DNA from: Escherichia phage JP4
Length of the DNA stretch: 64,000 nt
Strand: one strand, 5' to 3'
Sequence record: PQ330092
In this document: piece by piece, positions 30,781 to 31,374 of the stretch
Position numbering within the stretch: the first letter of the stretch is position 1
Layout: the number at the start of each line of letters is the position of its first letter
Program-made: the position numbers and the translations under genes
The notes under the pieces: model-generated
What the model was told of the DNA's origin: nothing
Database searches by the model: none
The model's input: the letters and a program-made list of their open reading frames with translations, nothing else

Positions 30781-31374
30781 ATGAAAAAGAATGAATTAGA
30801 TGAAGCAATTAAAGGTTTATCTAATGTATGTTTTAGTGGCGGGGCAGCAGGTGCTGACCGCCTTTTTTCTATCTATGCAAAAAATAATGGATTTGAAGTT
30901 ATTAATTTTTCATTCAAAGGTCATGAGCATAGTGTAGATGAAAGTACTATATTAGAAATACCATCCAATATTCTATCTGATATTTCTATATTAAATCAAC
31001 TAAACATTGCATGTTACTCGTTGCAGCGAAAAGTACCAAAGCCTGGTTCTTATGTTTACAACTTACTTGCAAGGAATAGTTATCAGATACTTAATACAGA
31101 AAGAATATATTGTATTGCAAATATCACATCACCAACTAAGGTAAGTGGTGGTACTGCATGGGCAGTACAGATGTATATGGATTCAGTTGAAAATCCTGAA
31201 ATTTATTGTTATGATATGAATTCACGTTCAGTATTTTATTTCGATACAGTACTGAAAGAGTTCACACAAACATTCGTCGTTCCAGCACCACATGGTAACT
31301 GGACTGGTATTGGTTCACGCAATGCCACCGAAAAACATATGGAACATTTTATTACATTTTTCAAGGAAGAATAA
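30781..31374 (+). CDS. Rossmann-like protein with SGGAAGAD motif (SLOG/DprA-like, tentative)
   Basis: CFSGGAAGADRLFSIYA resembles the glycine-rich loop of DprA/LOG (SLOG) domains; assignment tentative. Confidence 0.3.
   Translation: MKKNELDEAIKGLSNVCFSGGAAGADRLFSIYAKNNGFEVINFSFKGHEHSVDESTILEIPSNILSDISILNQLNIACYSLQRKVPKPGSYVYNLLARNSYQILNTERIYCIANITSPTKVSGGTAWAVQMYMDSVENPEIYCYDMNSRSVFYFDTVLKEFTQTFVVPAPHGNWTGIGSRNATEKHMEHFITFFKEE

Follow-up and report, generated by a model that had tools for sequence, protein, structure and literature searches.

SLOG domains of the YpsA-like clade carry a described GxD/E substrate-binding signature (PMC6459960), and their presence in about 31% of jumbo phages has already been reported (PMC9503650). 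According to a prediction by Iyer et al., such domains in viruses act as sensors of ADP-ribose derivatives or degrade them (PMC9503650; PMC7824862), and the SLOG domain of the Thoeris protein ThsA, which is reported to bind cyclic ADP-ribose isomers, serves as a functional precedent. The gene considered here is a 197-residue open reading frame (ORF) with an ATG start, located at 30781..31374 (+) in the ORF listing of a 64,000-nucleotide stretch of Escherichia phage JP4 DNA (record PQ330092; the whole stretch is referred to as the window) and followed directly by the thymidylate synthase gene thyA. An earlier note on this DNA had taken the product for a SLOG/DprA-like Rossmann protein occupying the place of the T4 gene frd. 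Our analysis indicates that the protein is very probably a free-standing SLOG domain with a circular permutation and a five-stranded Rossmannoid core, which belongs to the YpsA-like clade and is closest to cpYpsA and YAcAr, where the clade definitions follow the later papers of the group of Burroughs et al. 2015.

The AlphaFold2 model of the protein shows a single domain with a three-layer α/β Rossmannoid core at a predicted local distance difference test score of 97.1. The best match in the fold search is 3imk, a cpYpsA protein deposited as 'putative molybdenum carrier protein', with a score of 12.4 (128 residues at 2.6 Å), followed by 5wq3 of the LOG family (7.7), 8zva (ShosA/DprA, 7.6), 2nx2 (YpsA, 7.2), 4ljk (DprA, 7.1) and the molybdenum cofactor carrier protein 2iz5 (6.8), so that the fold matches known structures of the SLOG superfamily core. 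The earlier note had proposed LOG, DprA and nucleoside 2-deoxyribosyltransferase as the folds to compare. None of them gave the best match, and for nucleoside 2-deoxyribosyltransferase/DNPH1 neither a fold match nor a sequence match to the protein was found. The SLOG part of its description therefore stands, while the labels 'DprA-like' and 'LOG-like' are right at the superfamily level only.

The elements that define the domain are retained across the family, with about 20 columns invariant or nearly so in the alignment of 251 family sequences to which all conservation figures refer. The glycine-rich loop SGGAAGAD (residues 19–26; 30835..30858, +) follows the strand of residues 16–19 and keeps S19, G20, G21, A22, G24 and D26 in 97–100% of the sequences; within it, G24-x-D26, the GxD signature that marks the YpsA clade, is invariant. 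Further along the chain, RKVP (R83..P86; 31027..31038, +) marks the end of helix 68–81 with R83 at 95% and P86 at 90%, and LLARNSYQ (residues 95–102; 31063..31086, +) forms a helix in which R98 is conserved at 100%, N99 at 96% and Q102 at 98%. The second SLOG glycine motif, GGTAWA (residues 123–128; 31147..31164, +), opens helix 125–135, with G123, G124 and T125 at 100% and W127 at 97%. The invariant or nearly invariant polar residues comprise S19, D26, H48 (87%), R83, R98, N99, Q102, T125, W127 and R180. The LOG motif is PGGxGTxxE with a catalytic Glu, the equivalent of which in the present protein is Q130, a position occupied by Gln in 78% and by Glu in 7% of the members. The C-terminal strand and its G-S/T-R loop are formed by GIGSR (residues 176–180; 31306..31320, +; G176 98%, I177 95%, G178 100%, R180 97%), an element borne by strand 174–178 of the model. 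Since the G-S-R strand is N-terminal in DprA and YAcAr, its C-terminal position here corresponds to the same circular permutation as defines cpYpsA, in agreement with the fold match to 3imk.

Profile searches place the protein below the reach of the existing family models. The sole Pfam family with a match is YAcAr (PF10686; E 5.2e-4, residues 6–44), with a score of 20.2 bits against a gathering threshold of 28.2 and coverage limited to the first glycine loop and the helix that follows. Sub-threshold matches in relatives are likewise weak, to YAcAr in 20 of 57 and to DprA (DNA_processg_A) in six of 57, the latter at E values of at least 0.006. The cpYpsA model PF12694 does not match the protein at E≤1, and matches only two distant members of the SLOG family (E 8.5e-4 to 3.7e-3). 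No match to the protein was obtained with the DprA model (PF02481), none to it or its relatives with the LOG model (Lysine_decarbox), and none in NCBIfam, and neither the single sequence nor a profile of 57 sequences gave a meaningful match among the sequences of the PDB. With high confidence, we regard the protein as part of a distinct, cpYpsA-like viral family within the YpsA clade that is captured by no Pfam model.

This family is large and almost phage-specific. A word-indexed search returned 106 homologues at E≤1e-3, and an exhaustive hidden Markov model (HMM) search returned 2801 clusters at 50% identity at the same threshold, with 770 at E≤1e-30. Its strongly conserved members range over Rak2-like jumbo phages, megaphages, and T4-like environmental, crAss-like and N4-like phages, and most of them are free-standing proteins of 175–210 residues. 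About one tenth of the family has a conserved C-terminal extension of about 100 residues (GGWATV...W...LR...; P0072, P0084, P0088, P0096, P0112 and others, 270–312 residues), and neither this extension nor several N-terminal ones has a Pfam match. The window itself is 98.4–99.7% identical in this region to Asteriusvirus genomes such as BAU.Micro_ELP-22, PBECO4, 121Q, phAPEC6 and Sharanji, which belong to the Rak2-like group of E. coli jumbo myoviruses of about 350 kb. At least 10 Asteriusvirus genomes encode the protein with 100% identity while their regional DNA diverges by up to about 1.5%, and this identity, together with the many homologues and the conserved columns, establishes the ORF as a real gene.

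Beyond the free-standing copies, the domain is joined to other domains and inserted into giant proteins. A NADAR domain lies about 85 residues downstream of the SLOG domain in P0197, the polyvalent-type protein P0243 of 4050 residues combines SLOG with ART-PolyVal and a PIF1/UvrD helicase, and further fusions join SLOG to a histidine phosphatase (His_Phos_1; P0154), to DUF4326 (P0222) and to a CCCH zinc finger (P0235); in the NADAR, ART-PolyVal/helicase, His_Phos_1 and DUF4326 fusions the SLOG part reaches full-domain HMM scores. The N4-like Klebsiella phage Pylas and the crAss-like phage cr109_1 each have a complete SLOG domain with all motifs within a giant protein: in Pylas it occupies residues 984–1156 of a virion RNA polymerase of 3819 residues (E 2.5e-53), and in cr109_1 it is found close to the C-terminus of gp53, which has 4328 residues (E 2.4e-50). 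The Pylas gene spans 6061–17520 of L103, with SLOG within the N-terminal third of the polymerase; phages of the N4 type eject their virion RNA polymerase into the host cell as infection begins. The cr109_1 gene (L104, 1–6786) contains 26 in-frame stops under the standard code, which suggests stop-codon recoding in that phage. The SLOG domain is thus present in giant proteins beside conflict domains, and the protein of the window represents the free-standing copy.

Cellular copies are few. A scan of the genomes of 185,579 species with one strict pattern returned 15 loci, 13 of which lie on chromosomes of Flavobacterium, Paenimyroides or Myroides. In these Flavobacteriaceae a divergent miaB is followed by the SLOG gene (E about 1e-50 for its product), a WYL-WCX regulator, topoisomerase I and an arginase-fold protein, the last four on one strand. 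The regulator lacks a helix-turn-helix, and genes for GroES, SecG, LptE and a sigma-54 activator are found in the neighbourhood (L088–L100; e.g. L094, 5968–10071). This conserved operon is a housekeeping chromosomal context and not a prophage.

The reading that we favour, with a probability of roughly 40%, is counter-defence, in which the protein is predicted to bind or cleave nucleotide- or ADP-ribose-derived host immune molecules. The pocket would bind a soluble ligand with a 5′-phosphoribosyl group, the phosphates of which would be held by the arginines and the glycine loops while W127 and other aromatics would stack on the base, and the protein would either sequester this ligand or cut its N-glycosidic bond. 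Although we infer both ligand and chemistry, the likeliest candidates would be ADP-ribose-derived or other nucleotide messengers and toxins arising from host NAD+- or nucleotide-based immunity. The podoviruses would deliver the domain inside their ejected giant proteins, and the jumbo phage would make it as a separate protein encoded, together with ThyA, in a small operon. What lends this reading its tentative weight is the combination of the diagnostic fusions, the giant virion proteins of two unrelated podovirus lineages and the almost exclusively viral distribution of the family. The NADAR, ART-PolyVal, His_Phos_1 and DUF4326 fusions involve the same partners as underlie the prediction of Iyer et al.

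A number of observations weigh against counter-defence. The recurrent gene neighbours of the family are nucleotide-metabolism genes only, for a deoxynucleoside monophosphate (dNMP) kinase and thyA, and not Macro, NADAR or Nudix genes. The four fusions named above stand among several dozen multi-domain members, most of whose extensions are unrecognised. The PADLOC defence models, ThsA included, do not match the protein. Its pocket, predicted to be lined by the SGGAxGAD loop, the GGTAW loop and the GIGSR strand-loop, is drawn from SLOG precedent. Because the position of the catalytic Glu is so often Gln, hydrolysis by the LOG mechanism is doubtful, and binding may be the sole role. The SLOG protein of phage CBB, CBB_221, is not in the CBB virion proteome, so that early delivery in jumbo phages lacks support. 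Finally, viral SLOG domains are experimentally uncharacterised according to Iyer et al. (PMC9503650), and we found no experimental work on the phage SLOG family in the literature searched.

The position of the gene had suggested a quite different function. In T4, frd lies directly upstream of td, and the earlier note had read the SLOG gene as having taken over this position and as possibly coupled to dTMP synthesis, with a TAATG overlap with thyA as the hint of such coupling. The sequence bears out the anatomy on which that reading was built, namely a 197-residue ORF with SGGAAGAD and a stop that overlaps the start of thyA: in ...GAA GAA TAA TG AAA..., the stop TAA of the SLOG gene (31372–31374) and the ATG of thyA (31374–31376) share one A, as read from the raw sequence (31372..31376, +). 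The reported lack of a dihydrofolate reductase (DHFR) signature is likewise confirmed by the lack of any DHFR match in Pfam, NCBIfam, PDB sequence and fold searches. Yet a search by tblastn with E. coli FolA, and then with the Rak2-like DHFR so detected, located DHFR beside RNase H in every Asteriusvirus. About 100 kb away from thyA in both phages, DHFR is gp42 at 30689–31207 in 121Q as against thyA at 278762–279691, and lies at 248442–248960 in ELP-22 (99.7% identical to the window) as against thyA near 147 kb; in CBB, td (CBB_223) and frd (CBB_313) are far apart. A DHFR substitute or a divergent DHFR that feeds tetrahydrofolate to the adjacent ThyA would fit the place of the gene, upstream of thyA and overlapping it by one base. 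With no DHFR similarity in sequence or fold and a bona fide DHFR elsewhere in the same phages, the probability of such a function is close to nil, and replacement of frd was rejected as an explanation.

The adjacency to thyA was examined in a neighbourhood survey of 79 viral loci with SLOG relatives. Whereas thyA lies beside the SLOG gene in 15 of 15 Rak2-like loci, which have at least 49% identity, it does so in none of 59 more distant viral loci, and the adjacency behind the earlier note's proposal of coupling to dTMP synthesis does not extend beyond one lineage. Even within the Rak2-like group the two genes abut in Asteriusvirus and RaK2 only, and the TAATG overlap is absent elsewhere: GAP32, CBB, the Yersinia, Serratia and Erwinia phages and metagenomic relatives have an intervening ORF of about 110–125 residues in a gap of about 310 nucleotides (L009–L019 and L026; CBB_222 at 3095–3424 of L105). 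The overlap is therefore a local feature that gives no evidence of a conserved couple. A conserved functional SLOG-thyA pairing was rejected, the pairing being Rak2-like only and interrupted by the extra ORF in most genera. The adjacency results from an accident of gene order in one lineage and is not the mark of a folate or dTMP role, while a link to deoxynucleotide metabolism is possible via a conserved dNMP-kinase neighbour rather than via thyA.

That neighbour is a dNMP kinase of the T4 gp1 type (Pfam DNMK 6.4e-14, phrog_139 1.8e-41), encoded on the same strand within 6 kb at 39 of 59 non-Rak2 viral loci and immediately upstream of the SLOG gene at 29 loci, with stop-to-start distances of −34 to +1 nucleotides. 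The pair also occurs on a megaphage contig of 549 kb, and the link holds in 21 of 38 SLOG lineages when these are clustered at 70% identity. T4-type neck and tail genes (gp13-like adaptor, gp15, sheath, tube) are present at 34 of the 39 kinase-linked loci, and the pairing therefore amounts essentially to one old block passed on by vertical inheritance, as opposed to a set of associations that arose independently. Distant T4-like phages have the SLOG gene between those for the dNMP kinase and the tail sheath. In the window, the dNMP kinase gene (T4 gp1-like; 14743..15369, +; hmmsearch E 7.2e-79 against the HMM of the DNMK neighbours) lies 15.4 kb upstream of the SLOG gene and directly ahead of the tail sheath gene (15464–18127, +). 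It follows that the SLOG gene has long belonged to the neck/tail module of T4-superfamily myoviruses and that thyA came to lie next to it more recently. Where the kinase is absent, at 20 viral loci, the neighbours are mixed (SMC_N, deformylase, ligase, TPR-glycosyltransferase, PHB depolymerase, DUF2059) with no common theme. In one metagenomic phage (L006, 7413–10703), the SLOG gene is found about 0.9 kb upstream of NMNAT-Nudix and NAMPT genes, a phage NAD+ salvage and reconstitution pair, with a dCMP deaminase gene 3 kb upstream.

This gene order is the basis for a rather unlikely but possible alternative, in which the protein is an enzyme or regulator of the dNMP pool, either as a (d)NMP N-glycosidase in the manner of LOG/PpnN or as a gating or sanitising partner of the dNMP kinase and, locally, of ThyA. 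The kinase association across loci, lineages and the megaphage contig, the constant thyA neighbour in the Rak2-like group and the dCMP deaminase near the SLOG gene of the metagenomic phage are all consistent with such a role, as are the SLOG-guanylate-kinase-type fusions noted by Iyer et al. and the NMP N-glycosidase activity of those SLOG members for which catalysis has been characterised (PMC9503650). The pairing is, however, essentially a single inherited synteny block, with the kinase well removed from the SLOG gene in the window and unrelated neighbours at the 20 remaining loci; the thyA adjacency is lineage-specific, the catalytic Glu of LOG is not conserved, and a housekeeping enzyme is hard to square with insertions in ejected giant and polyvalent proteins. 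The kinase and the immune readings could also be combined. The Kongming system of the host makes use of phage dNMP kinases to produce dITP, its alarm nucleotide, from deaminated dAMP; T5 evades it by means of a phosphatase that destroys dNMPs and is found together with kinases of this type. A kinase-coupled SLOG N-glycosidase or sponge that removes dIMP or another non-canonical dNMP before phosphorylation, as a counter-defence co-evolved with the dNMP kinase, would explain the kinase-SLOG pair, the nucleotide-type pocket and the domain in ejected proteins; we consider this specific version very unlikely.

Quite unlikely, too, is the function implied by the database name, that of a DprA-like binder of single-stranded DNA (ssDNA) or recombination mediator, in which the G-S/T-R motif and the glycine loops would grip the ssDNA backbone. 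PHROG 768 (E 1.3e-26) is the origin of the RefSeq name of the 121Q orthologue gp567, 'DprA-like DNA recombination-mediator protein', and the weak DNA_processg_A matches in some members, the PIF1/UvrD-type helicase fusions and a 'DNA 3′-5′ helicase' fusion among the BFVD matches point the same way. So does the Flavobacteriaceae homologue directly upstream of the WYL-WCX regulator and topoisomerase I, a context that recalls the dprA-topA pair of Firmicutes and ssDNA-sensing WYL regulators. Against this, the single domain of 197 residues lacks the accessory domains of DprA, the gene lies outside recombination and replication modules, and the cpYpsA fold match is much better. Nor is the protein basic, with an isoelectric point of 5.75 and a net charge of −3.8, as compared with a median isoelectric point of 6.96 in the family. 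The name is probably misleading. Counter-defence by capture or cleavage of an immune nucleotide remains the reading that we prefer, and the probability left over goes to functions other than those weighed here.

The surroundings of the gene in the window are those of a virion module. Four tightly packed genes on the + strand constitute an operon amid the tail and structural genes of a jumbo phage of the Rak2-like group: an 86-residue protein (29858..30118, +; 121Q gp565, phrog_13789, unknown function), a 218-residue protein (30121..30777, +; phrog_15894) whose stop lies 3 nucleotides ahead of the SLOG start, the SLOG-domain protein itself as the orthologue of 121Q gp567, and the full-length thymidylate synthase (thyA/td; 31374..32303, +; PF00303, E 2.9e-101) as the fourth and last gene. 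A sigma-70-like promoter match ahead of the operon (29811..29838, +; GGGACA-16-TATAAT, TG extended) is a consensus match only, and promoter-like sites in the operon region show no enrichment over shuffles. A terminator-like, bidirectional hairpin at 29776..29797 closes the upstream ATPase/VWA unit, and a 12-bp hairpin at 32307..32334, between thyA and a convergent structural gene, forms the operon terminator. Ahead of the operon lie the genes for an ATPase and a DUF2201 metallopeptidase/VWA protein and, before them, a stretch of about 12 kb with genes for the tail tube, head completion and the virion, and behind it come tail-fibre and further structural genes, so that the SLOG-thyA locus is part of a jumbo-phage tail module and not of a nucleotide-metabolism cluster of the T4 frd-td kind. 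The ATPase gene (26939–28264, +) is followed by that for the DUF2201 metallopeptidase and VWA-like protein (28339–29763, +; Pfam 2e-35 and 6.9e-21), and the label 'HNH endonuclease' given to the latter in RefSeq and PHROG looks like a mis-annotation; the phAPEC6 record notes it as 'N4 gp25-like'.

Annotations of the SLOG ORF differ among the relatives. It is called 'long tail fiber proximal subunit' in CRJP21 and 'DUF2493 domain-containing protein' in one GenBank record. In phAPEC6 (L087, MK817115.1), the ORF is intact at 1482–2075, with DNA 100% identical to that at 30781–31374 of the window, and the GenBank annotation gives two short out-of-frame ORFs (gp261c, gp260c) in its place; a split or pseudogenised SLOG gene in this phage was rejected as an annotation artefact. 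Owing to this mis-annotation, the published proteomics of phAPEC6 virions could not detect the SLOG protein. Purified phAPEC6 virions do contain ThyA (gp259c; 3 unique peptides, 10.7% coverage), the orthologue of the 218-residue protein (gp262c, 1 peptide) and the ATPase, and ThyA was not detected in CBB virions. The presence of ThyA in phAPEC6 virions recalls the old and disputed claim that Td and Frd of T4 are baseplate components.

RefSeq already has an annotation for the gene, and nothing at this locus is anomalous. As far as the literature was searched, what is new is the assignment to the cpYpsA-type permutation, the gene pair with the dNMP kinase inside a T4-type neck/tail block, the insertion of SLOG into the virion RNA polymerase of an N4-like phage and a giant protein of a crAss-like one, and the WYL-topA context in Flavobacteriaceae. 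The analysis also removes the misleading inference that a SLOG gene replaced frd. If the protein does sequester or destroy a host immune nucleotide, the family would add a widespread class to the few known phage counter-signalling proteins; if it instead works with the dNMP kinase, it would represent a new step in phage deoxynucleotide metabolism. Either way, a confidently modelled single domain of this size from cultivable E. coli phages makes a good biochemical target.

Compared with known systems, the protein falls within SLOG's YpsA-like clade by its fold, its glycine motifs, its GxD signature and its permutation, and stays below the Pfam thresholds of cpYpsA, YAcAr, DprA and LOG. With cpYpsA (PF12694) it shares the C-terminal G-S/T-R strand and the 3imk fold match; the phage family differs in an invariant set of its own, FxxGH, RxxP, LLxRNxxQ and GGTAWAxQM, and in an extra β-meander at residues 141–164. 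YAcAr/DUF2493 (PF10686, 'YspA, cpYpsA-related SLOG family') is the SLOG type reported in jumbo phages, to which the protein has its sub-threshold match, but the two presumably bear the G-S-R strand at opposite ends of the chain. DprA/Smf (PF02481), the source of the database name, has the superfamily fold, the two glycine motifs and the G-S/T-R motif in common with it, and the topA context of the Flavobacteriaceae homologue resembles dprA-topA. From the NMP N-glycosidases LOG and PpnN the protein differs by the absent Pfam match and by Q130 at the position of the catalytic Glu. Like T4 frd, the SLOG gene has a stop that overlaps the start of thyA; unlike it, the gene does not encode a DHFR, which is found far away in the genome, and lies in a tail module. 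Thoeris ThsA recognises a messenger derived from ADP-ribose through a SLOG domain that is likewise of the YpsA-like clade. There, the domain is fused to SIR2 in a host defence effector, whereas in Escherichia phage JP4 it is a free phage protein.

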